Below are positions 7,724-59,900 of a stretch of 64,000 bases of DNA, in pieces. How positions within the stretch are numbered: the stretch's first letter is position 1; every line of letters begins with the position of its first letter. The notes beneath the pieces are model-generated. The model searched no databases and was not told the origin of the DNA. It saw only the letters and a list, made by a program, of their open reading frames with translations. The DNA lies in the NCBI GenBank assembly GCA_964291265.2, contig OZ219747.1:2176001-2240000 (forward strand), in the 5' to 3' direction. The stretch comes from Alphaproteobacteria bacterium (lineage in GTDB: Bacteria; Pseudomonadota; Alphaproteobacteria; SP197). A program made the position numbers and the translations under genes.

Positions 7724-8377
7724 TCAATCCAAAGCCTCATCCACAAGAACGCCGTCATCATATTGATTGTAGAGCGTAGTGCCGTCGGCGTGGCGAACGA
7801 CCCATTTGCCGTGCCGCTCGCCGTCGACATAGGAGCCTTCATGGACGGATCCGTCAGCCGCGCGAACGACCCAGTGACCGTGCTGTTTGCCATCGACATA
7901 AAGGCCTTCCCCGACGGATCCGTCACCCGCGCGAATGACCCATTGGCCGTGCTGATCGCCGTCGACATAAGGGCCTCCCCCGACGCCGCCGTCAGTTGCG
8001 CGAATGACCCATTGGCCGTGCCGCTTGCCCTCGACATATGAGCCTCCCATGACGCGGTCGTCATTCTGGAGGACCCATTGACCGTGCCGCTTGCCCCGTA
8101 CCAGCGTGCCCGTGGCCTGGTCGGAACCGTCGGCGGACTCCCGCCCCAAGGTTCCCGGCCCAACGGCGAGGCCGTCCTGGCATTCGCCGAACCAGGTCAC
8201 CGTGTCAGTGGGATCGTAGTAGTGATTGAAAACATAGCAGTCGGGTCGGTCGGCGAGTTCAATCCAGCATTCGGCGCCCTCGCTCATCCCGGCGCATTTC
8301 GGGTTCGGCGCCTCGGCGCCGGCCGACGCGAGCGGGGCGAGGAGAAGCATGAGGAAGGTCGCCCTGAAGCGCAGCAT
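7724..8377 (-). CDS. Secreted MORN-type repeat protein, short paralog (5 repeats)
   Basis: Signal peptide, 4-Cys N-terminal cap, five ~23-aa G-x-Y-V-D-G-x-x-H-G-x-W-V repeats; paralog of 45323-47221. Confidence 0.8.
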   Translation of the reverse strand: MLRFRATFLMLLLAPLASAGAEAPNPKCAGMSEGAECWIELADRPDCYVFNHYYDPTDTVTWFGECQDGLAVGPGTLGRESADGSDQATGTLVRGKRHGQWVLQNDDRVMGGSYVEGKRHGQWVIRATDGGVGGGPYVDGDQHGQWVIRAGDGSVGEGLYVDGKQHGHWVVRAADGSVHEGSYVDGERHGKWVVRHADGTTLYNQYDDGVLVDEALD

Positions 8378-44849: not shown

Positions 44850-45309
44850 TCGACGTGGCGGCACCCTACGCCGGACAGCACCAGGCCGGCAATCGCGGCC
44901 CCGCTACCGGGGATGGGTTGTCGGGTCCAGCCCAGACGCAACGTTCTCGACCCACCACGGAGATATCGACGGCCTTGCCGGGCTGAGCGGAAGCGCACAA
45001 CCTGCACGAACGTTTCGTGAAACACGGGAATTCCGTCCTGCGCTTCATGGGAGACTCCGACGTCAGTGTCACCAACCATGCCGGAGCACGGAAGATCAGG
45101 ATGGTAAGGGTCAAGATCAAGGTGTCTGGATGTTTCCGCATCATGCGCCGCGCAAAAGCATGGCGCCGGGACTCAAGCTACCTCACCCCCATGGCGGCAC
45201 TCGGCTACAATCATCACGTCGCCATCCACATCGCTCTCGACGGAAAGGCCTCAGACATGATCACGTTGCATCACGACCCATCAGAACCCAACAAGGCGTG
45301 AGTAGATAC
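44850..45309 (+). pseudogene. IS66-family transposase C-terminal remnant with right end
   Basis: SVLRFMGDSDVSVTNHAGARKIRMVRVKIKVSGCFR; terminal GTGAGTAGATAC resembles IS66 ends. Confidence 0.7.
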
Positions 45310-45322
45310 CGGAGAACCACAT

Positions 45323-47221
45323 ATGCTGCGCTTCTGGACGACCTTCCTCATGCTTCTCTTCGCTCCGCTCGCGTCGGTCGGCGCCGAGGCGCCGAACCCG
45401 AAATGCGCCGGGATGAGTGAGGGCGCCGAATGCTGGATTGAACTCGCCGAGCGGCCCGGCTGCTATGTTTTCAATCACTACTACGAACCCTCCGAGACGG
45501 TGACCTGGTTCGGCGAATGCCAGGACGGTCTCGCCGTTGGGCCGGGAACCTTGGGGCGGGAGTCCGCCGGCAGTTCCAGCGAGGCCACGGGGACGTTGGT
45601 GCGGGGCAAGCGGCACGATCACTGGGTCTTTCGCTACGCTGACGGATCCGTCGAGGCAGGCCCTTTTGTCGACGGCAAGCGGCACGGCCATTGGGGCGCT
45701 CGCACAGCTGATGGATCCGTCCTTGAAGGCCCATGGGTCGAGGGCAAGCGGCATGGCCACTGGGTCGCTCGCACAGCTGATGGATCCGTCCTTGAGGGCC
45801 CGTATGTCGAGGACAAGCAGACCGGCCATTGGGTCTATCGCTTGGATGGCGGCTATGTCGGGCAAGGCCCATATGTGGACGGCAAGGAGCACGGCCACTG
45901 GGTCTTGCGCGGGCCTAACGGACACGTCAAGGAAGGCCCCTATGTCGAAGGCAAGCAGACCGGCCACTGGGTCATTCGCCACGCTGATGGCACCGTCGAG
46001 GAAGGCCCCTTTGTCGACGGCGAACGGCACGGCGAATGGATCGCTCGCGTGGCTGACGGCACTGTCGAGGTAGGCCCTTATGTCGAGGGCAAGCAGACCG
46101 GCCACTGGATCATTCGCCGGAATGACGGCATCGTCGATGAAGGACCTCTTGTCGACGGCAAGCGGCAAGGCCACTGGGTTTTTCGTGCGGCTGACGGACA
46201 CGTCGGGGAAGGCCCTTTTGTCGACGGCAAGAAGCACGGCCACTGGGTCTTTCGCTACGCTGGCGAATTCGTCGAGGAAGGCCCTTTTGTCAACGACAAG
46301 CGGCACGGCCGCTGGGTCCTTCGCGCGGCTGACGGGTCCGTCGGGGAAGGCCTTTATGTCGACGACAAGATGACCGGCCATTGGGTGATTCGCCACGCTG
46401 ACGGCATCGTTGAGGAAGGCTCCTATGTCGACGGCAAGAAGACCGGCCACTGGGTCATTCGCCTGAATGACAGCGCCGTCGTGCAAGGCCCTTATGTGGA
46501 CGGCAAGCAGACCGGTCACTGGGTCATTCGCCGGAATGACGGCGCCGTCGAGGAAGGCCTCCTTGTGGACGGTATGCGGCACGACCTCTGGATCTTGCGC
46601 TACGCTGACGGATCCGTCCATGAGGGCCCTTATGTCGACGGCAGGAAGACCGACCACTGGGTGATTCGCCACGCTGACGGCATCGTCGAAGAAGGTCCTT
46701 ATGTCGATGGCAAGCAGCACGGCAAATGGGTCATTCGCCACGCTGACGGATCCGTCGAGGAAGGTCCTTATGTGGACGGAGAGCGACACGACCACTGGGT
46801 CGTTCGCTGGCCTGACGGATCCCTCCATGAAGGCCCATATGTGAACGGTAAGAAGACAGGCCACTGGGTCATTCGCTGGCCTGACGGAGACATCGGGGAA
46901 GGCCCTTATGTCGACGGCAAGCGGCACGGTCACTGGGTCTTTCGCTACACTGACGGGTCCGTCCATGAAGGCCCTTATGTGGATGGAGAGCGACACGACC
47001 ACTGGGTCGTTCGCGCGGTTGACGGATCCGTCCATGAAGGCCCTTATGTCGACGGGAAAAAGACTGGCTACTGGGTCGTTCGTGCGGCTGACGGATCCAT
47101 CGACCAAGGCCCCTATGTCGACGGCGAGCGGCACGGCCAATGGATCATTCGCTACGCTGACGGCACTACGGTCCACGATCGTTATGTTGAGGGCTTGCTT
47201 GTGGATGAGCCTTTGGATTGA
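45323..47221 (+). CDS. Secreted MORN-type repeat protein, long paralog (23 repeats of 23 aa)
   Basis: Signal peptide, 4-Cys cap, GGAG RBS; consensus YVDGKxxGHWVxRxADGxVxEGP. Confidence 0.88.
   Translation: MLRFWTTFLMLLFAPLASVGAEAPNPKCAGMSEGAECWIELAERPGCYVFNHYYEPSETVTWFGECQDGLAVGPGTLGRESAGSSSEATGTLVRGKRHDHWVFRYADGSVEAGPFVDGKRHGHWGARTADGSVLEGPWVEGKRHGHWVARTADGSVLEGPYVEDKQTGHWVYRLDGGYVGQGPYVDGKEHGHWVLRGPNGHVKEGPYVEGKQTGHWVIRHADGTVEEGPFVDGERHGEWIARVADGTVEVGPYVEGKQTGHWIIRRNDGIVDEGPLVDGKRQGHWVFRAADGHVGEGPFVDGKKHGHWVFRYAGEFVEEGPFVNDKRHGRWVLRAADGSVGEGLYVDDKMTGHWVIRHADGIVEEGSYVDGKKTGHWVIRLNDSAVVQGPYVDGKQTGHWVIRRNDGAVEEGLLVDGMRHDLWILRYADGSVHEGPYVDGRKTDHWVIRHADGIVEEGPYVDGKQHGKWVIRHADGSVEEGPYVDGERHDHWVVRWPDGSLHEGPYVNGKKTGHWVIRWPDGDIGEGPYVDGKRHGHWVFRYTDGSVHEGPYVDGERHDHWVVRAVDGSVHEGPYVDGKKTGYWVVRAADGSIDQGPYVDGERHGQWIIRYADGTTVHDRYVEGLLVDEPLD
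45596..47182 (+). repeat. Coding tandem array, 23 x 69 bp
   Basis: Strict 69-nt period with no indels; 23 Trp-anchored units counted. Confidence 0.92.
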
Positions 47222-47269
47222 TGATGCCTTGATCACGTAATCTGGTAGATAATCTCTCGCGTCATGCGC

Positions 47270-47941
47270 TTGCGGCACGATCTTTGGAGGCTGGTTTGAA
47301 CGAAGGCCGGGGCGCGTGCCTGGAGGCGTTCTGTGAAGCGCTCTCCGGTATTCGCTGTCGAGGCGTTCAGCGGCTCGGCCTCCGGCGAAATCGGCGGCGA
47401 AGGCGACGAGGGTGCGCTTTGGCGCCCAGGCTTCGGCCCATTTCGCAAGGCACCGGGTAACGCCGGCGGTTGGCAGGATCGCGGTTCCGGGACGGCGACA
47501 TTCCTCGATGCCCCAGGAAGAGACGGTGTCGATTGCGCGTCAGTCCTCGGGCCGGTCCATCGACAGCCAGAGACTTCCGTCGGCGCGTCAGCACCTAGTG
47601 TTCAAGAAGACCGTCGAGGCGAAGCCTGTTGTCAGGGCTGTGGAAGCTGCGGTCGAGCTGCACCAGCGCAGGTCGGGAAAGCGCGCCTGGGTCTTCTCGA
47701 TCATTGGCTGAGCAGAGTCCATGTCGCTGTCTTGCCACATGATCTCGGGGTGCAGGATGAACCCGTGGTGGTCCTCAAGCACGCATACCGGCACCCCGAA
47801 TTCCACCGGCGTTCCCGCCTTGCCCTTCGAGTTCCACCGTGTGCAACTCTCGAAGATCGAGAACATCTTCTCGTCACGCGGGATCGTCTCGCTCTGGAGA
47901 AGGCGGCGCGCCACCCGGTCGATCTGACGCCTCGCATGGCC
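47270..47941 (-). pseudogene. ISNCY/IS5-like transposase remnant
   Basis: RRLLQSETIPRDEKMFSIFE..SKGKAGTPVEFGVPVCVLED. Confidence 0.7.
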
Positions 47942-48199: not shown

Positions 48200-48560
48200 A
48201 TTGGTCTTGCATTGACGTTGACGATGTCGTTCCGGTCGGCGTTTTCTGGCGTTCGGCGTTTGTGGAACGTGATGTGGGAGGGGAGCTTCAGGCTTTTGCG
48301 CGTGGTTTCGTTCTGGCGTTCTCCGTCCTCGTCGTGGTTCGTCGGGCGGGACGATCTCGAGGCTGGAGAGCTGACGGTTTCTGTTGCGCTGGGCGAAGAG
48401 GCTGCGTGCGTTGCGGTTGCGGCGGCGCAGGGTGCGGCAGGCGTCGAGTGTTTTCGGGCGGATGCTGCGACCTGTGAGCCAGTCCGGCGGCGGATCGGGC
48501 GTTGCTGCGGCTCAGCGGCTGCGGCAGTCTCGTGATGTGGTGTCGTTTGGACGGCCCGGG
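48200..48560 (-). pseudogene. Decayed, internally deleted copy of the toprim gene
   Basis: Aligns by eye to ~49340-49470 and ~49718-49925. Confidence 0.7.
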
Positions 48561-49142
48561 GGTTTCCCGGGGAGGCTGAGAGGCGCGTCGGGGTGAGACG
48601 TTCTCATTCCTGGATGGTAACGCGTGACCGCGTTCAAGGGTCTTGCGAGATTACGTGTCCCTTCCGTAGCCGCGTGGCGGTTCGATGTCCTCGAGAGCCT
48701 CGATGTCGGCATCGGCGACGCTCTGCAGGCGTTCTCCGTAAGGCGTGTCACGGAGGGTTTCGGGGATGCTGTCGAGGCGGTCACGCCATTCGTCCTGCAG
48801 GGTGCGGCAGGCGTCGAGTGTTTTCGGGCGGATGCTGCGACCTGTAAGCCAGTCCGGCCAGCGGCTGCGGCAGTCTCGTGATGCGGTGTCGTTTGGACGG
48901 CCCGGGGGTTTCCCGGGGAGGCTGAGAAGCGCGTCGGGGTGAGACGTTCTCATTCCTGGATGGTAACGCGTGACCGCGTTCAAGGGTCTTGCGGGATCAC
49001 GTATCCCTTCCGTAGCCGCGTGGCGGTTCGATGTCCTCGAGGGCCTCGATGTCGGCATCGGCGACGCTCTGCAGGCGTTCTCCGTAAGGCGTGTCACGGA
49101 GGCTTTCGGGGATGCTGTCGAGGCGGTCACGCCATTCGTCCT
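48427..49142. repeat. Tandem direct repeat (370 bp + 346 bp)
   Basis: 48427-48796 nearly identical to 48797-49142 apart from a 24-bp indel; GCAGGG at the junctions. Confidence 0.88.
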
Positions 49143-49287
49143 GCAGGGCGCGCAGTTCGGCCACGGCGTCGTTCCAGCGTTGCGGTCGCGAGCGCCGGTC
49201 ACGGTGCTTTGGGGTGTGGACGGGAGGGATGCCGGCCTTGCGCCGTTCCCGGTATCGCCGCTGCTTTTCGGCGGGCGTGAGGGGCAT
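48997..49287 (-). CDS. Small hypothetical protein
   Basis: MPLTPAEKQRRYRERR..PPRGYGRDT; AGGAG RBS upstream. Confidence 0.7.
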   Translation of the reverse strand: MPLTPAEKQRRYRERRKAGIPPVHTPKHRDRRSRPQRWNDAVAELRALQDEWRDRLDSIPESLRDTPYGERLQSVADADIEALEDIEPPRGYGRDT

Positions 49288-49313: not shown

Positions 49314-50207
49314 TCATGATCTCGCTTGTGGTTCTTTGGTCCTGGCGTTGACGACGTCGTTCCAGTCGGCGTTTTCCGGCGGTCTGCGTCTGTGGAACGA
49401 GACGTGGGAGGGGAGCTTCATCTTTTTGCGCAGGGTTTCGGCCTGTCGCTCTCCGGCCTCGTCGTGGTCCTGGGCGAGGACGATGGTCCTGACGTTGGGC
49501 AGGCTGCTTGCGGCGAGGCTGATCTGTTCGTGCTGTCTTCGCGAGGGTGCCCCGGCGGTGGAGAGGAAGGCGTGGCTGGGGGGACATTGGTCGATCTGGG
49601 CCAGGCTGAGGGCGTCGACGGCGCTTTCGGTGATGACGAGGGCCTCGAGGTCCGCGGCGGTTCCGGCGCGGACGGCGAACAGGCTTCGGGTTCCACCGGT
49701 GGCGAAGCGTTTCGGTCCGTCGGGGGGACCGATCTCGAAGCCGGTGAGCTTTCGCTTCCTGTTGCGATGGGCGAAGAGGACGCGTCCGTTGTGGTCGCGG
49801 CGGACCAGGGGGCGGCAGGTGTCGAGGGTCTCCGGGAGGATGCCGCGCCCGGTGAGCCAGTCCGGGGCCGCATCGGGCGTTGCCGCGGCCCAGAGGCTGC
49901 GGAAGTCGCGTGGCGCGGCGTCGGGTGCTGCGAAGCGGGTGCAGATGTCGGCGAAGGCCAGTCCGCGGTTGAGCATGAAGTCGATGACGGTTCCGTTGTC
50001 TTCATCGTTCTGGGTGTTGAAGTAGACCCAGTGTCCGTTGTTGAGGCACTTCGTGACGAGCTTCGGCAGGCCGGGTGCGCACAGGACGGGGTTGGCGCGT
50101 GTCGAGGCCTGTTCGTCGCGGACGTATCCCCAGTCGGCGGCGATGCGTTCGAACGGCATGCGCTTGACGGCGTCGAAGTCGACGCGGCGGGGTTTATCGG
50201 GTTTCAC
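49314..50207 (-). CDS. Toprim-domain / primase-like protein (DUF3991 + toprim architecture)
   Basis: NGTVIDF, WLTGRGI, ITESAVDALS, AQDHDEAG, DWND; start overlaps the istB end. Confidence 0.78.
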   Translation of the reverse strand: MKPDKPRRVDFDAVKRMPFERIAADWGYVRDEQASTRANPVLCAPGLPKLVTKCLNNGHWVYFNTQNDEDNGTVIDFMLNRGLAFADICTRFAAPDAAPRDFRSLWAAATPDAAPDWLTGRGILPETLDTCRPLVRRDHNGRVLFAHRNRKRKLTGFEIGPPDGPKRFATGGTRSLFAVRAGTAADLEALVITESAVDALSLAQIDQCPPSHAFLSTAGAPSRRQHEQISLAASSLPNVRTIVLAQDHDEAGERQAETLRKKMKLPSHVSFHRRRPPENADWNDVVNARTKEPQARS

Positions 50208-50895
50208 GCCTGAGCCGCCAGGAGTCGCTGTCGATGGAGATGAGGGTTGCGTCGTGCATGAGCCGGTCGACGGTGCCGGCGATGCCGGAGGCGCTGGGGA
50301 AGACGCGGTCCCACTGGGCGAAGGCGAGGCTTGTTGTGACCATGGTCGAGCGGCGCTGATAGCGCCGCGAGACGATGGCGTAGAGGATGTCGGCATGGTG
50401 GCTTTCGAGGGTCACGTAGCCGATTTCGTCGAGGACGAGCAGGCGGGGCCTGGCGAGGATCGCGAGGCGGCGGCGCAGCTCGCTGCGCGAGACGGTCTCG
50501 GCGAGTGCCTCGAGCAGTTCCGGCGCCTTCTCGAAGCGGACGGTGTGGCCGTGCAGCAGGGCCTGGTGCGCCACGTTGGCGGCGATCATGGTCTTTCCGG
50601 TGCCCTGCCCGCCGACGAGCACGGCGTTGTCCGCACGGTCGACGAAGCCGAGGCCGAGGAGCGCTTCGACATGAGCCCGGCTGATGTCGCGCGGCCATGT
50701 CCAGTCGAAGTCCGCCAGGGGCTTGAAGGCGGGCAGCCGCGCCGCGGCGCGGCGGCGCTCGTGGCTGCGGGCCCTGCGGGCCTGTTCCTCGCCGCTGACC
50801 ACCTCCTCGATCCATGCGGTCCCGGCGACCTCGTCCCAGCGTTCGACGAGCCCGTGGAGGCCGAGCGCCCGGGCACGCTCCCTGAGCTCGCTCAT
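50194..50895 (-). CDS. istB: IS21 helper ATPase IstB
   Basis: LADFDWTW, GGQGTGKT, LLVLDEIGY, VDRLMHDA, SWR. Confidence 0.92.
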   Translation of the reverse strand: MSELRERARALGLHGLVERWDEVAGTAWIEEVVSGEEQARRARSHERRRAAARLPAFKPLADFDWTWPRDISRAHVEALLGLGFVDRADNAVLVGGQGTGKTMIAANVAHQALLHGHTVRFEKAPELLEALAETVSRSELRRRLAILARPRLLVLDEIGYVTLESHHADILYAIVSRRYQRRSTMVTTSLAFAQWDRVFPSASGIAGTVDRLMHDATLISIDSDSWRLRRETR

Positions 50896-52385
50896 GTCTT
50901 GTTCCTGGCGCTGGCTTCGGGCCTGTCGTAGGCGTCGAGAGCGGTCCCCCGCGGCGTCGTGCCACGGCCGCCGCGGCCGTCGTCGGCGATGCTGAGGGGC
51001 GGCAGGCCCTGCTCCCGGCGGCGCTCCTCGATGATGACGCGCACGGTTTCGGGGTGGCACGAGCCGCGCTCCAGCGCCGTGGCGACAGCCCGGTCGAGAG
51101 CGTCGGCGCCGTGCGCGTTGAGAAGCGTCTCCAGCATCCGGGCGCAGGAGGCCACGTTGCGCCCGTTGGTCCCGGCGCGCGCCAGCATCTCCTCGGCCCG
51201 CGGCACGGTGCGCAGGACCCGGTCGCGGACGCTCATGGAGCGGGCCCGCCGCTTGCCCGCGGCGATCGCCCTGGCATGCTCCGGATCGGTGACGGCCTGC
51301 TTCCTGTCGTAGGAGCGTCGGTGGCGCGCGACCTCGTCGGCGCCGTCGAGGATGCGAACCTCGTCGCGGTCGGCGACCAGCGTCAGCAGGGCCTTGGAGA
51401 AGCTACCCGGAACGCTGTAGTCGTTGGTGTCGAAGCGGGCGTGGCAGGTCTTGTCGATGCGCACCGGGCGGACCTCGTGATGCGGGAAGGGGTCGACGGG
51501 AAGGACGATCAGGTGCTCCCTCTCCCGGGCGAAGGCGTCCCGCACCAGGAGACTGTCGTCGTCCGGCCAGGGCCGCTCCGCGGCGGCGCCGAAGCACCAC
51601 TCCCGAACTGCGGCGTTGAGCTCGCCGAGCGGGACCGTGATGTCGCGCCCGGCGAAGAACCCGGTGCGCGCGAAGCGCACACGGCGTTCCACGCGGCCCT
51701 TCTCCTGCGGGCTCCTGGGCCAGGCGGCGCTCGGTTCGAAGGCATAGTGGGCCGCGAGGCCGAGCAGCATCGGATGATAGGTGACCGCCTTGCCGCGGCG
51801 CGTCACCACGGCACTCTTCAGGTTGTCGTACAGAAGCCTCCGCGGCACACCCCCGAATGCCGCGAAAGCCTCGACATGGCCTTGCAGGAAGCTGGCCATC
51901 CGCGCGTCGTGGAACAGGCTCAGGACAGTCTGGCGCGAGTAGCTGAGGGTGACGAGAAGCCCCATGAGCCTGCGCTCCGCCCGGCCGATGCGGACCTTCC
52001 CGAACTCGGCCCAGTCAACCTGCGCCTGCTCGCCCGGAAGGAAGCTCAGCCGCAGCGACGGCTCGGGCCTCTTCACCGGCCTCAGCCCGAGGCGGCGCAG
52101 GTCGTGACGGAAGTGATCCTCGCCGCCGCGGTAGCCCAGAGCCACGACCTGTCGCCAGAGCGTGCTGGCCGGAAGGTCCGGCGACGCCTCAAGACGCTCC
52201 CCGAGGAAGGCAACGAAGGGGTCGATGAGCTTGGCCCGCGGCCGCCGCTCCTGCCCCGACGCCTTGAGCGCCCGCGTCACCGTGCCGTGGTGCACGCCGA
52301 GATGCCGGGCAATCGTCCCCACAGCCCAGCCCTCGGCCCGCGACAGCCGCACGATCGTCGCCCGCGTGTCCTCGTCGATCGCCAT
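50892..52385 (-). CDS. istA: IS21 transposase IstA
   Basis: N-terminal HTH; PGEQAQVDW, LYDNLKSAV, EKGRVER, FDTNDYSVP. Confidence 0.92.
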   Translation of the reverse strand: MAIDEDTRATIVRLSRAEGWAVGTIARHLGVHHGTVTRALKASGQERRPRAKLIDPFVAFLGERLEASPDLPASTLWRQVVALGYRGGEDHFRHDLRRLGLRPVKRPEPSLRLSFLPGEQAQVDWAEFGKVRIGRAERRLMGLLVTLSYSRQTVLSLFHDARMASFLQGHVEAFAAFGGVPRRLLYDNLKSAVVTRRGKAVTYHPMLLGLAAHYAFEPSAAWPRSPQEKGRVERRVRFARTGFFAGRDITVPLGELNAAVREWCFGAAAERPWPDDDSLLVRDAFAREREHLIVLPVDPFPHHEVRPVRIDKTCHARFDTNDYSVPGSFSKALLTLVADRDEVRILDGADEVARHRRSYDRKQAVTDPEHARAIAAGKRRARSMSVRDRVLRTVPRAEEMLARAGTNGRNVASCARMLETLLNAHGADALDRAVATALERGSCHPETVRVIIEERRREQGLPPLSIADDGRGGRGTTPRGTALDAYDRPEASARNKT

Positions 52386-53304: not shown

Positions 53305-53899
53305 GAAGAAACACGACCCTGACAAAGCGCGGCAAATCGCCGAAATCCCGCCGTTCTATGCAGCCATCAACAGGTCAGGATGTCTGAACTTCTGGTCTTG
53401 GATTTTCGCGACGGTAACGGTGCATGCACAGGCAGTGAGCGGAACCACAGGGCTTTTCTTTTGTCGTCCCGGCGCTCGGCGCACGCAGGATTCTGGGGGT
53501 GGACATCCCGTTTTCGCCGTGGCAGTGTGCCGGCATGACGACGCTTGTGACCCCAGATTCCCCTATCGACCTTCACGAGGTGACGGTGCGCCCGACCCGT
53601 GGCGCACGTGAGCACCGGCTCTGGGATCGTCTGGTCAAGGAGCATCACTACCTGCGGTTTCACGGCATCATCGGCAAGGGCCTGCGCCATGTCGCCCTGC
53701 ACGGCGAGACCTGGGTGGCGCTGGTCGGCTGGCAGCCGGGCTCGTTCAAGCTTGCTGCACGCGACCGCTGGATCGGCTGGACTGCGGAGCAGCAGTTCCG
53801 GCGCCTGCATCTGATCGCGAACAATTCCCGGTTCGTCATTCTTGGCCCGAGGTAAGCGTTCGGCCACGCGGTGATTGTTGGTGATATTCACCGGTTGAG

Positions 53900-54195
53900 G
53901 ATGCGTTTGGGAGGCGCACCACGTGGCGGTTCGCTGTTGGGTCCGAAGACGATGGGTCCGGGTCGGGTTGCTCGTCGTTGGGGTGGCGGCAGGGTGATGA
54001 GGCCGTCGCGGTGCATGGCCAGAAAGGCGACATTCGCCATCATGTTCTTGAGGCCCCGTCGGGCTTGTATCAGCCGGTCTCGCGGCAGAAGGCGCGGGCG
54101 ATGGCCGCACGGGTGGGGTGCTGGGTGATCAGGGAGCGCAACAGCGCCATCTCGTGCGCGGTGAAGTCACGGCCGTCGTAACGGCACTCGATCAC
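53900..54195 (-). pseudogene. N-terminal fragment of a DUF4338-type protein inside IS66
   Basis: RYDGRDFTAHE..ARAFCRETG*YKPDG / LKNMMANVAFLAMHRDGLITLPPP; stop and frameshift; GTGA overlap with the tnpC stop. Confidence 0.6.
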
Positions 54196-55019
54196 CCCGG
54201 TTCCATGAGGTCCCGTCGGCGCTCCGGGGTCATCGACCATGGCAGCCACGGGTCGAGGTCATCCGGCGGCTTGCCGCCGTTCTGCGCGCAGGCCTCAAGC
54301 CACTCATGAAGCCAGCGCCGAACATTGATGTTGTTCATGGCAAGGGTGCCGATGACCGAGTACATGATGGCGGTGAAGGCGGCGCCTTCCTCGCTGTCGG
54401 AGCCGAAGCTCAGCTTTCTCGCGGTCACCGCACCCCGGAGGGTTCTCTCGGCCAGGTTGTTGTCCATGGGCACCTGGGGATGGTCGACAAAGACGCACAG
54501 TCCCTCGCGGTGACGGATCAGGGAACGCAAGGGCTTCGCTTCGCGTGCACCCTCGGGCAAGGCGTCGAGTTCCTCCTGAGCCTGCCTGAACAGCGCCTCG
54601 ACAGCCGCACGAAGGTCCTTCTGCAGGGCATTGAACCTCGCTGACTGACGCTTGCGTGCGGGATCGTAGTGCTTCAGCCGTTGCCCATTCAGTGTGTAGA
54701 TCAGCGCGATCCTGTCGAGCCACTTGTCGCACCACTCTTCCAGCCCCTCTTGGCCTGCCGCAGCCTCGATCACATCGCGCCTGGAGTGCGCCCAGCAAAG
54801 GCAGAGGATCACCTTGCCATCAAGCTCACGCTCCAGTTTCCTGTAGACCACGTAGCGGTCGCAGACAAGGAAGACGGTGCCTTCGGTGGAGGCGAACAGC
54901 ACCATGGCCACCCGGGTGCTGCGTGACGGGTCGATAAGGAAGAAGACGGAGTCGGCGCTGACCGCGGTCCACAGCCAGGCCTTCTGCGAGCGCCCCGAGG
55001 CCTTGAGGGACTGGATGCG

Positions 55020-56938
55020 GTGTGCCAGGCGAACTGGCGGAAGGTAGGGGGTGAAAGTCCCCTGAAACGAAGGAGTAACCAAACCACGTTTCTCCGCGAG
55101 CCGTGCGTCGGTTCCCGCGAGGGGGCAGGCGAAGCGTCGGTAGCGGTACGGATGGGCAGGGCTAATGAGCACCGAAAAGTCCGTTGTTCGGGGTGCCGAG
55201 GCTTTCGCATCGGTCGAAGGCAACATCGCAGGCATCGATTTGGTGAGATGTCGGCGAGCCCCGCGGTGTCGGAGAACCCATGCACGTCCGCACGCCTTCT
55301 GTTGGGACCCTGGGAGGTCTTCGAACTATCCCGCCTGTCGTGGCGGGACCGTGTAGGGAAAGGAGAAAGCCGAAGCCTATGAGGAACGGTTTGAAGAAGT
55401 CGGATGGGGCCGTAAGACCGGTGAAGGCGGCGAACAAGGGAGCGTCAGCTTCTGCGGAGTCGCTGGAGGAAAGGGCCTCAACCAAGGGGAATCCGGGACG
55501 CCAAAGCACGCACCGAACGCAGTGTCGGGCAAGTGTGCCACAGGCGGCGGACCGGATACGGGAAGCTGCAGAGAGGAACCCGAAGGAGCGTCTCACTGCA
55601 CTCTTCCATCACATTACGCCGGACGCGCTCCGGGCGGCCTACTTCGGTTTGAAGAAGGAAGCCTCGGCAGGTGTCGACGGCGTGACGTGGGCGGCGTATG
55701 GCGAGGGTCTGGACGAGCGCTTGCTTGATCTGCACTCGCGCCTGCATCGTGGGGGAGCGTACCGGGCGCCGCCGGTTCGGCGGGTTGAGATACCCAAGCC
55801 GGACGGCGGGACACGACCGCTCGGGATTGCCGCACTGGAGGACAAGATCGTCCAGAAGGCGGTTGTGGATGTGATCCTGACACCGATTTATGAGGTGGAG
55901 TTCCTTGGCTTCAGCTACGGGTTCCGACCGGGCCGAGGGGCGCATGACGCTCTCGACGCCCTGGCGTTCGGGATCGAGCGGCGCAAGGTCAACTGGATAG
56001 TCGACGCGGACATTCAGGGGTACTTCGACACAATCCCGAGGGATTGGTTGATCAAGTTCCTGGAGCATCGCATTGGCGACAGGCGGGTGATCCGTCTGAT
56101 CCGCAAGTGGCTGAACGCTGGCGTCATGACCGACGGATCATGGAGCGACACCGGTGCGGGCACGCCTCAGGGCGCCATTGTCAGCCCCTGCCTGGCGAAC
56201 GTGTTTCTGCACTACGTGCTCGATCTGTGGTTTCACAAGGCATGGCGTCCGAAGGTTCCGAACGGTAAAGCGATCATTGTCCGCTACGCGGACGATATTG
56301 TGGTCGGGTTCCAGCATAAGCGGGATGCGGAGACATACCTTCGCGACGTTCGGGAGAGGCTGGACCGCTTTGGTCTCACCCTTCACCCGGACAAGACCCG
56401 TCTCGTTGAGTTTGGACGGTTTGCCAAGGCGAACCGGCGATCTCGCGGGGCGGGCAGGCCGGAGACGTTCGACTTCCTGGGCTTCACGCACTTCTGCACG
56501 GAGACCCGGAGAGGACGCTTCAGGCTTGGTCGCAAGCCGGTCGCAAAACGGGTCGCAAGGACCCTGGCGCGCATCGAGGAGGTGCTTCGCAATCGACGGC
56601 ATCACGACATATGGGAGGTCGGCATGTGGCTTGGGCGAGTTGTCAATGGCTGGTCCAACTACTTCGCCGTTCCGGGGTCGACCCGATGGCTGCGCACGTT
56701 CCGCCAAAGGCTGCAACGCCTATGGCTGCGAGCGATCCGCCGCCGCTCCCAGCGCCACTGCTTTGACTGGAAGCGATTGGAGCGCATGACCGAGCTTCTT
56801 TGGCCGCGCGTCTCCATCCGCCACCCATGGCCGGACCAGCGGTTTACCGTCAAGCACCCGAGGTAGGAGCCGGATGGATTAACGTCCATGTCCGGATCTG
56901 TGCGGGGGGTGCGCAGCAATGCGCATCCCTACCGCGAC
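55020..56938 (+). mobile_element. Full-length bacterial group II intron (1919 nt)
   Basis: 5' GTGTG, 3' CCCTACCGCGAC; domains V/VI at ~56866-56938; no TSD; flanks rejoin tnpC exactly. Confidence 0.95.
55535..56866 (+). CDS. ltrA: Group II intron reverse transcriptase/maturase, no endonuclease domain (start uncertain)
   Basis: GVDG, IPKPDGGTRPLGI, SYGFRPGR, DADIQGYFD, GTPQG, RYADD, FDFLGF, GWSNYF. Confidence 0.95.
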   Translation: MPQAADRIREAAERNPKERLTALFHHITPDALRAAYFGLKKEASAGVDGVTWAAYGEGLDERLLDLHSRLHRGGAYRAPPVRRVEIPKPDGGTRPLGIAALEDKIVQKAVVDVILTPIYEVEFLGFSYGFRPGRGAHDALDALAFGIERRKVNWIVDADIQGYFDTIPRDWLIKFLEHRIGDRRVIRLIRKWLNAGVMTDGSWSDTGAGTPQGAIVSPCLANVFLHYVLDLWFHKAWRPKVPNGKAIIVRYADDIVVGFQHKRDAETYLRDVRERLDRFGLTLHPDKTRLVEFGRFAKANRRSRGAGRPETFDFLGFTHFCTETRRGRFRLGRKPVAKRVARTLARIEEVLRNRRHHDIWEVGMWLGRVVNGWSNYFAVPGSTRWLRTFRQRLQRLWLRAIRRRSQRHCFDWKRLERMTELLWPRVSIRHPWPDQRFTVKHPR

Positions 56939-59900
56939 CCAGCTGGTCTCGTCGCCGTGGCGCACCGTCAGCCGGTTCTGATGATCGAGGATGGCCTGAG
57001 CGAGAGGCGCGAACATCGGCGTCATCTTCTTCATGCCGCCAGCGATCGTTCCCGGCGCCATCGGCAGTCCCTGGTCTTCCAGCCATCGCGAGACCCGGCG
57101 CAGGGGACGCAAGCAGGCGAAGCGCTCATAGAGCACGCATTCCCAGACACTGATGCCGAAGGGGGTATTCGCAAGCAAGCGCAAAGGTGGCGGCGCGATG
57201 ATCTCCGCAGGCGCCGACGAACACTGACAACCACGGCGCCAACGCCCACGTTCAATCCGCCGGATATGAGCCTTGACATGGACCTCCATGATCGAGGTCT
57301 CGTGGCTGCCGTTGGCCACATAGGGCTCGCCGCAACACGGGCACGTGCGCTGCGATGCCGGTGGATCATGGCGTTCGTGCTTCTCCTTGAGCTTCGGACG
57401 CGGAGTGCGCCCGTGGCCGCTCTTGCCGGGTTGCTGACCCCGCTTGTTCCCGGTGCCTTCCTTCTTCTTCCGTTTCTCGCTCTTCGACCCGAAGCGCGCC
57501 GTCGCGTGCTTGGCACGCGTCCCGCGGAGATTCCTCAGCTCGCTCGCCTGTTCAGCGTTCTTGAGCTTCAGAGCGTCCCTTTCCTGCTCCAGCGCCTCCG
57601 CTCGGGCCTGTCCACGCTTCACCTCCCGGCGAGCCTCCTTGAGCTGATCACGAGTGCGGTCGAGATGAAACTTGAATGTGCCCGCACGGGCACGGGCAGA
57701 ATTCTTCGCACGGCGCAGGTCACGCATACGCGCTTCCGCCGCATCCGCACGAACCCGCTCCGCCTCATAGAGCGCACGCCAGTCAGGCGCCTCGCATGAC
57801 AAGGCCACTGACGCCCGACATAGGCCGTCACCACCTCCCGTCAGCTGCTGTGTCGCTCCGCGCGTCTCGGCAAAAGTCTTCATGGCCTCGACCATAATCG
57901 AGACCAAACGAGTTTACCAGCTCTTTCTCAGACGATAGTCAGCAAGACCCAAACCAACCAAAATCAGCCATCACCGAACGGCCGAACGCTTACGGCCCGA
58001 GAGGGGTGCCGAACCTGGCGTCCCGCGTGCTCGGCCTGAGCCTTCGGCGGCTGTCCGCCGACATCGAGGCCACGCACGGATACCCAGTGTTCCTCGCGGA
58101 GACGTTCGTCGACATCAAGCGCTTCGCCGGAACCTGCTATCGCGCGGCGAACTGGCGCTCGCTGGGATTGACGCGCGGCTTCGGTCGCAAGCCCGGCGGC
58201 ACCGCACGCTTCCGTCACCACGGCCAGCCCAAGGAGATCTTCATGTACGAACTGACCGACGGCGCCGCCGAGGCGCTGAGCCGGGACGCGATCCCGGAGA
58301 GCTGGAACGCGGAGCAGCACGACCAAGCCGGACCGATGGCCGCGTCCGGGCTGCGCAGTCTGTTCGCCTGCCTGGGCGAGGTGCCCGAGTGCCGCAAGCC
58401 CCGGGGCAAGCGCTATCCGCTGAGAACCATTCTCGCGATCGCCGTCGCAGCCCGGCTCGCCGGCTACCGCGGCGTGAGCGCATTCGCTCAGTTCGCCGCC
58501 CTGCTCACCCAGGAACAGCTGGCGGCGGTGGGTGCGTTCTACAGCCCGTCGAAGAAGCGCTACACGGCGCCCACGTCCACAACCTTCCACAGCATCCTCG
58601 CCAACCTGCCGCCCGAGACCCTGGACCACGCCATCGGCCTGTGGACGGCCCAGCAGGCCGGTGCAGACACACCGCTCGCCATGGACGGCAAGGACATCCG
58701 CGGCGCCTCCAGGCAGACCAAAAACGGGCGGCGGATGATGGTCGCAGCGGTCGAGCACGGAACCGGCATGGTCCTCGGCCAGGTCGAGGTCGACGCGAAG
58801 AGCAACGAGATCCCCGCCGTGCGGGACCTCGCCAGCAGCATCGACGTCACGGGCCGCATCGTCACCCTGGACGCGATGCACGCTCAGCACGAGACCGCGC
58901 AACGGCTTCTCGAGCGCCGCGCCGACTATGTCATCACGGCGATCAAGGATAACCAGGAGACCATGCTCGACGACCTCAAGGCCATCGACTTCAAGGGCGC
59001 GGCTTCGTTCGAGACACTCGACAAGGGGCACGGACGCATCGAGCGCCGCCGCTGTGCCGTGGTCGACATCTCCGGCGCCGAGTGGGACGGCTACGCCGCT
59101 CTCCACGGTCGCCACCAAGCCATCCGCATCGAGCGCGAACGCGAGATCTGCAAGACCAAAGAACGCAGTGTCGAGACCACCTGGTGCCTCACCTCGCTCG
59201 CTCCCGAACGCGCCGGACCCGAGATGCTTCTGGCCCTCGTGCGCGACCACTGGGTCATCGAAAATCGACTCCACTACGTACGCGACTTCACCTACGACGA
59301 GGACCGCTGCAGGGTCCATGTGCGCCATCTGCCACGCAACCTCTCCTGCCTGACAAACGCCGCCATCGCCATCGTGCGCTGCGGCGGACATTTCGACTAT
59401 ATGCCCGAAGCCAACCGGCACTACGCCGCCCGCGCCCAGGACGCACTCGACGCTATCCTCATCCCGCCCGGCGGATGAACCTTCGCTCCTGACCCCGCGC
59501 CACAAGCCGGGAACGCGCCGCCTGACGGCGCAACAGGACAGCTCTGTTCGCACACTCGAAAAAACGTGCCTAGTGAGCCCTGATGCACCAGCAGTGCCCA
59601 CTGAAACCAGCCCACAGCGAACCCGGGCGCCTCAACCATGCCGGTCCCTGTCACATCAACAATCCACAGGACTGAAAAAAGAATGGTCCTGAGCGGAACC
59701 ACACAGATCTTGATCTTTGCCATCAACATCAACCCCTGTGGTCGGACATCCATGCGTTGTACGCCATGCCGCACCATCGGCCTCAGGCAAAGACGTGCCG
59801 GACCTGCGCACATTCCGCCTGCCTTGGGATCGGGCGCCTGCAACTATGCGATCCGCCGTCCACACCACATGGCAGCCTGGGATACCGGAGCCGCCAGTTC

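Follow-up and report, generated by a model that had tools for sequence, protein, structure and literature searches.

We propose that the open reading frame P0001 (632 aa; 45323-47221, + strand), taken from the ORF list of the 64,000-nucleotide stretch of DNA analysed here (the window) and assigned by fold matches, encodes a predicted secreted solenoid of a MORN-variant type. We consider it fairly probable that this protein forms a rod whose groove has been diversified by selection and which, like an adhesin, binds a single extended chain outside the cell, probably a host or microbial protein.

Architecture of the gene and its repeat array

The 1.9-kb frame has no internal stop codon and is preceded by a GGAGA motif resembling a ribosome-binding site (45311-45315, +), whose sequence is common to both closest paralogs. 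Residues 1-21 (45323-45385, +) read by eye as a predicted Sec signal peptide, with a basic start, a hydrophobic core (hydropathy of 2.3 across 11 residues) and V-G-A ahead of the presumed cut, in agreement with the secretion suggested by a first-pass annotation of this DNA. The following all-β N-terminal cap (45386-45592, +) comprises four cysteines (C28, C37, C47 and C66), which are invariant in alignment A1, and a degenerate canonical MORN hairpin; a loose form of the cap motif is present in 119 of the 120 listed homologues. The repeat units, delimited by TRF, manual cutting and entropy, occupy 45593-47179 (+), and the protein ends with closing C-terminal strands and the stop codon (47180-47221, +). 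Homology to the paralog stops 16 bp past this codon.

TRF described the array by a period of 69, 22.6 copies, 74% matches and a score of 1250, and manual cutting resolved it into 23 units of exactly 69 bp without a single indel, just as initially claimed. The unit consensus is PYVDGKxHGHWVxRxADGxVxEG, and positions are numbered here from the tryptophan of its GHW, with W as zero. The framework is nearly constant, as annotated, with V at W-8, W itself and R at W+3 identical in 23/23 units, and every residue set that had been listed for a variable position proved correct. Entropy across the units is highest at W+4 (2.98 bits, nine residues), followed by W+10 (2.52 bits, seven residues), W+8 (2.49 bits, eight) and W+2 (2.32 bits, six), and then by W-4 (1.86) and W+5 (1.79). 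These four sites, singled out at the outset, are indeed the most variable, but the hypervariable 'di-residue' named beside them comes down mostly to W-4, because W-3 is essentially two-state (H in 13 units, T in 9 and Q in 1). Mean unit identity over the framework is 59%, and the best between-repeat identity over 100 aa is 75%.

One unbranched contig from run X1 spans 45540-47700 with 0 differences and 0 gaps; as X1 may be the source sample, this match checks the assembly only, and contigs drop rare variants. Pieces from runs X2 and X3 match the cap and the short paralog, but coverage is sparse or absent across most of the long array, a gap that proves nothing.

Past the signal peptide, no membrane helix is predicted and no catalytic domain was detected with Pfam, and the mature chain is acidic and His-rich (net charge -33, 42 His). 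These properties would suit a decoy released in soluble form, which would sequester phage fibres or the cationic defence peptides of a host without attachment to the cell, but the peptidoglycan-binding domain found in 13 of the 120 listed homologues would hold such proteins at the cell, and we regard a decoy as highly improbable.

Predicted fold and facing of the variable positions

Pfam matches of P0001 to MORN_2, SET7_N and Tcp10_C are all below threshold; for MORN_2 (PF07661), the score is 19.5 bits against a gathering score of 29.6. Among the 120 listed homologues, 18 have a precomputed PF07661 match. The top sequence matches are solved MORN proteins (MORN1, E 7e-19), and Foldseek matched MORN1 crystal structures at a target TM of 0.80-0.85. 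A model of the cap plus five units, built with 67 sequences (pLDDT 96.6, pTM 0.87), again matches MORN1, and the ESM Atlas returned MORN clusters alone (0.85-0.88), which we treat as a lead only. The MORN-type β-hairpin fold that had been recognized from the repeats is thus borne out by sequence and by predicted models.

P0001 has in common with canonical MORN proteins (MORN1, 6T6Q, 6T4R, 6T69 and 6T4D; junctophilin-2, 7RXQ; MORN4-Myo3a, 6JLE) the 23-residue period and, as predicted, a twisted single β-sheet with a groove. The canonical Gly at hairpin position 10 is found in 21 of the 23 units, and both the aromatic residue at the Trp position of YEGEW and R, K or Q at position 10 of the 14-residue motif are retained. 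In contrast to the canonical GxG, however, the second position is W in 23/23 units and the first is G in 18 and D in 5, and instead of YEGEW the units read x-E-G-P-Y, with seven different residues at the Tyr position. The invariant Trp is predicted to lie on the floor of the groove, where canonical MORN repeats carry Gly.

A gap-free alignment to Toxoplasma MORN1 fixes the register: W corresponds to the second G of GxG, W+2 and W+4 to LxY, and W+10 and W-9 to the Y and W of YEGEW. The LxY and YEGEW residues are described as lining the MORN groove (PMC7725318), R10, equivalent to W-4 here, as stacking with groove residues (PMC8916002), and positions 2, 4, 13 and 15, which correspond to W+11, W-10, W-1 and W+1 of the P0001 units, as ridges of the convex face (PMC8916002). 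In a solved MORN complex, the peptide sits on the concave side (PMC8916002). Register and cited structures therefore map three of the four hypervariable sites to the groove. We predict that W+2, W+4 and W+10, together with W-9 and W-4, are groove positions and that the back face is conserved; this facing derives from the sequence register, not from model coordinates, and W+8 is assigned to the groove solely via its inferred hairpin pairing with W+4. The suggestion that the variable positions share one face accords with this assignment. Scaled from 80 Å per nine repeats, the rod is predicted to be ~200 Å long. According to the S11 Fig legend of PMC7725318, the groove is the conserved surface of TbMORN1, whereas it is the variable one in P0001, which is also predicted to be secreted and Cys-capped.

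Variation across the family

The homologue search scored 7997 candidates and found 1329 homologues, 120 of which are listed; the family profile was taken from the 65 listed homologues that have at least eight units. Mean heterozygosity in this set is 0.75-0.83 at W+2, W+4, W+8 and W+10, 0.66 at W-4 and 0.34 at W-3, the variability profile follows that of P0001 (Spearman 0.82), and each position draws on a residue set that recurs across phyla. The groove side is more variable than the back in 58 of the 65 homologues. P0001 is the longest, with 22 units detected compared with at most 13 in the other listed homologues, a comparison made within a length filter of 347-1106 aa and among assemblies that, if built from short reads, can collapse arrays.

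Close relatives occur in genome records including Candidatus Poriferihabitaceae, Latescibacterota, Acidobacteriota, Gammaproteobacteria and Alphaproteobacteria. Several of these lineages are sponge-associated, so the source organism may itself live in association with a host. Within the genus, 13 of the 22 other genomes match a query of the cap plus two units and 7 match a seven-unit stretch (E 1e-10), with none of these matches extending beyond about six units; no second carrier of the P0001 gene appears among the matches listed.

Besides the peptidoglycan-binding domains, fusions among the 120 listed homologues involve Ser/Thr kinases (8), FGE-sulfatase-like domains (10) and caspase-like domains (4). 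The order in seven of the eight kinase fusions is kinase, predicted membrane helix, cap plus array, which fits the layout of a receptor ectodomain; an array placed outside the membrane on receptor-type kinases would thus fit a binding role. The best curated model for P0001 is the LIC20035 adhesin (NF033566, E 5.5e-36), yet the score of 124.3 bits against a cut-off of 250 leaves P0001 outside that family, and the match spans the repeats only. Leptospira LIC20035 is, according to a review, surface-exposed and binds collagen and chondroitin sulfate (PMC10927737). It is because of the kinase-fusion layout and of LIC20035 as the best match that we favour an exported binder.

A separate group of sequences, L071-L073, lies on one 115-kb viral contig, which is low in GC and phage-like and carries several small adjoining MORN-variant repeat genes. 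Variable positions are present in these genes, and no signal peptide was seen by eye.

Probable selection at groove-side codons

In units 2-22 of P0001, where pS is 0.32, the four sites have a pN of 0.61 and a dN/dS of 2.98, compared with 0.12 and 0.32, respectively, for the back face. The ratio is 2.41 at four literature-defined groove sites (half-sample range 1.64-3.34) and 1.31 over all eight groove-side positions, the fixed W and G included. Because the four sites had been chosen after seeing the data, neutral simulations were run. The observed value for the top four sites was reached in 0/150 star-tree simulations and in 31 of 106 simulations with coalescent trees and rate variation; P0001 alone therefore does not prove selection. 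With positions fixed beforehand, five of nine other arrays lie above the stricter of the two nulls, whose simulations reach the observed value in 0-2 of 150 cases, and the remaining four are not significant (13, 26, 34 and 91 of 150). The repeat-level dN/dS excess that had been anticipated hence replicates in part of the family but fails in P0001 itself after post hoc correction. Two saturated arrays gave dN/dS values of 0.61 and 0.27.

Pooling of nine other arrays yielded pN of 0.48-0.63 at W-9, W-4, W+2, W+4, W+8 and W+10, all six of which are groove-side by register, with a mean pS of 0.25; pN is 0.06-0.31 on the back face and 0.17 at W-3. The simulations, in which terminal units were trimmed, omit L022 (a near-copy of L021), L003, L081 and L093 (whose DNA is that of L080 or L027), L018 (from the source genome itself), the saturated L024 and L027, and three four-unit arrays, namely L030, L082 and the first one of L040; for the pooled pN/pS table, the first L040 array was added and the saturated L043 dropped. 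L021 and L041 seem to be relatives and do not count as two entirely independent arrays.

A neutral reading would hold that the groove sites are merely exposed to solvent and free of constraint and that homogenisation mimics selection, the protein being a spacer or stalk, or else a silent relic in transposon debris. The non-significant corrected test in P0001 is in line with it, as is a synonymous divergence that differs greatly from one codon column to the next (pS 0.00-0.65), and if the framework were homogenised, dS would fall and dN/dS would be inflated. Yet both faces of the sheet are exposed and only one varies in the 58 homologues noted above, and six units of L040 carry just 1 extra synonymous allele but 25 extra amino-acid alleles, of which 12 fall at the four sites. 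We judge the neutral alternatives unlikely, if far from negligible, and selection for binding is the likely cause of the amino-acid excess at groove sites.

The second L040 array and L080 are very young, with next to no silent divergence and many amino-acid alleles at groove positions; these two arrays are the best material for a selection test. In units 2-22 of P0001 (45662-47110), a third-base T is kept at W+5 (21/21), W-9 (20/21) and W+2 (19/21), and the first and second bases of these codons vary. T-ending codons are rare genome-wide (GCT makes up 9% of Ala codons before G). The retained T fits an amino-acid change that outruns silent change, though it is not fully explained by it.

Possible code-like reading and exchange between units

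TALE proteins consist of near-identical helical repeats of 33-35 aa with one variable di-residue, and one repeat recognizes one ligand unit. Like TALE and VLR arrays, P0001 combines gap-free tandem units and a fixed frame with variable surface positions. Each hairpin might accordingly read a short peptide or glycan piece by a transferable rule, a notion that gains from the 21 different four-site combinations in 23 units, from the residue sets recurring per position across phyla and from solved MORN proteins, which hold peptides along the groove (PMC8916002, PMC7725318). However, P0001 is an acidic, predicted exported chain of 23-aa β repeats in which variation spreads over six positions, units are 59% identical and neighbouring hairpins share the groove. 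No di-residue is privileged: family-wide heterozygosity at W-3 is less than half that at the four sites, and its pN in the other arrays is the 0.17 given above. The TALE-like di-residue code first put forward thus finds no footing, and modular reading of any such kind appears very unlikely. The net charge of -33 together with the predicted export also argues against DNA or another nucleic acid as the ligand.

Recombination-driven shuffling had been envisaged as well, by analogy to VLR repeats. VLR-type assembly uses a donor cassette library outside the gene, and DGRs depend on a dedicated reverse transcriptase, a template repeat and adenine-specific change. A repertoire actively reshuffled by a VLR-, DGR- or HET-E-like process would vary within the population. 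Pointing towards it, 54% of the informative site pairs in P0001 are tree-incompatible, the PHI test at the nucleotide level gives p 0.006 at window 3 (partly through within-codon linkage), unit-to-unit similarity decays within ~46 nt, and exact 20-26-nt matches are common to P0001 and its paralogs. The PHI values are, however, 0.07-0.43 at the codon level and 0.03-0.18 at third positions, and Sawyer-type conversion-tract tests are null in four of four phases (p 0.48-0.92). Support for recombination in the P0001 array is weak.

The sub-blocks reported to recur in new combinations are present, but the longest exact in-register DNA match between units is merely 30 nt and the closest pair of units differs at 6 of 69 nt; recurrence of this kind would be expected from a small pool of alleles per position. 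T at W-3 travels with I at W+2 (p 0.007), and this association marks two unit lineages. Multi-base codon changes, also noted early on, do occur between pairs of units, but only 3 of 35 distinct codons are at least two changes away from the nearest codon for a different residue. Exchange of whole-codon cassettes is unneeded, as 32 of the 35 four-site codons are joined by single steps, although where a column holds many alleles, short steps are more likely to arise by chance. Higher-order duplication of two or three units was rejected too, since neighbouring units are uncorrelated at lags of 69-138 nt.

An nhmmer search of the genome for donor units gave matches confined to three paralogous genes and a single isolated stretch resembling a unit, so that, in contrast to VLR systems, no donor cassette library was found. 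A DGR origin, prompted by the conserved third bases at W+2, W+5 and W-9, was discarded: neither a template nor a distinct reverse transcriptase was detected in a search with one reverse-transcriptase query, which could miss a very distant enzyme, and the first and second bases at the variable sites are not adenine-dominated. Of 19 reverse-transcriptase matches in the genome, 18 are at least 70% identical to the group II intron enzyme of the window and the 19th reads as another maturase-like N-terminus.

Four ortholog pairs of homologues were compared, and units were reordered in none. L021 and L022 agree in all 10 units apart from 3 amino-acid changes; L028 and L029 are ~92% identical in DNA, with 2 of 20 groove codons changed; L043 and L052 have the 3' units in common, L052 being without the 5' part; and in L045 and L047, 7 of 12 groove codons are changed in a gappy alignment. 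Arrays therefore diverge from unit to unit and, once formed, change little for the most part. In view of these pairs and of the single unbranched X1 contig, with the caveat on rare variants already given, we attach only minimal probability to active reshuffling, and neither the shuffling proposed at first nor any VLR- or DGR-like generator was supported.

Genomic context and paralogs

Upstream of P0001 lies the 3' end of an IS66-family remnant (44990-45310, +; NCBIfam NF033517, E 2.9e-7, below cut-off), which has more than 20 genomic copies at 82-88%. It ends 12-13 bp before the ATG, leaves the ribosome-binding motif intact and replaces an upstream region of ~165 bp that is common to two paralogs; the P0001 copy may therefore be poorly expressed. 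No sigma-70-like site was found in 44900-47700, where 0.3 are expected, and no RNA data set carrying the gene appears among those listed; both results are uninformative on expression. An ISNCY-family transposase fragment follows downstream (47591-47914, -; NF033593, E 4e-25, below cut-off), and the flanks of P0001 consist to 88-94% of multi-copy DNA. Such flanks and the loss of the native upstream region are what the relic variant of the neutral reading would predict, but against it stand the intact 1.9-kb frame and the preserved ribosome-binding motif.

A short paralog of 217 aa with five units and the same signal peptide and cap (7724-8377, -) is 82% identical to P0001 in nucleotides over 601 bp; across the first 103 codons, pS is 0.117 and pN 0.073. 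Three further paralogs, at G000:C2:3299531-3304197 and G000:C1:127884-129191, are extended by a further domain at the N-terminus and also contain a segment that by eye is SH3-like, and an ankyrin-like ORF adjoins the C2 pair. A single GxW unit at G000:C1:267548-267639 (-) is embedded in an unrelated-looking frame and is a possible remnant. Elsewhere, an ORF on G000:C2 near 1338000-1338665 (-) contains RTX-type calcium-binding glycine-rich nonapeptide repeats (named by eye).

From 43800 to 64000, the window is a dense nest of mobile elements. In addition to the ISNCY fragment, it includes an IS21 pair (50194-52385), a Toprim-domain ORF (49314-50396), a 346-bp duplication (48508-49152) and a DruA-like fragment (53499-53855). 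The group II intron reverse transcriptase/maturase (55280-56866, +) is flanked by IS66 transposase pieces (54192-55235 and 56879-57907), and its 18 genomic tblastn matches at 70% identity or above point to a strong expansion.

Discussion

In the model that we favour, P0001 would be exported through the Sec pathway and its cap held by disulfides. The units would have arisen via unequal crossing-over, after which point mutations were favoured at six groove-side codons and the V, R, E, V, P and H of the back face were conserved, and each finished array would then have changed rather little. Binding specificity would reside in the composite surface as a whole and not in a code of one letter per repeat.

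Fusobacterium MORN2 (PF07661) proteins are described as carrying predicted signal peptides in 87% of cases, as variable in repeat number, as located near IS elements and as proposed adhesins (PMC4222103). P0001 is likewise bacterial, predicted to be exported and close to IS elements, but it scores below the PF07661 cut-off. PMC4222103 is not known to present a position-level selection analysis, and the term 'positive selection' occurs 0 times in its main text. In a literature survey of titles and abstract starts, subscription journals and supplements excluded, we found no account of a Cys-capped GxW family.

In fungi, the WD40 repeats of HET-D/HET-E (HNWD) proteins and ANK/TPR repeats are described as under diversifying selection at a few binding-surface positions; repeats of this high-internal-conservation type share more than 85% identity across 100 aa, and their number is polymorphic (PMC1805685, PMC4986451). 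P0001 stays below that 85%, with 75% at best and 59% on average between units, unit order is stable in ortholog pairs, and the protein is predicted to be extracellular and has no NOD domain. By analogy, the P0001 family may work like a MORN groove binder that evolves in the HNWD manner, exchange aside. The surprise is limited, because this evolutionary pattern is already known from fungal WD40, ANK and TPR repeats.

A bolder extension, which we consider quite unlikely, is that the family forms a natural multi-phylum library of secreted and receptor-linked binders, each hairpin of which uses six groove residues to read one piece of an extended peptide. If so, the 23-unit protein could be programmed to read peptides along a long chain of the host, and the family as a whole would be a repertoire for extracellular recognition in prokaryotes with an output into Ser/Thr kinase signalling.

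MORN2-type proteins are common in bacteria and are exported, and no function has been assigned to them. For the favoured exported binder, the analysis provides a map that can be tested, in which the back face is conserved, a groove Trp is invariant and six positions on the groove side outpace silent sites. This conservation pattern is reversed relative to eukaryotic MORN1 and indicates where ligands should bind, and the module appears to be reused, since it occurs both alone, as an exported protein, and on receptor-type kinases, where it forms the outer domain. Should a ligand be found, a β-hairpin family would join the repeat-based recognition proteins of host-associated bacteria and would offer a simple scaffold for engineered binders.
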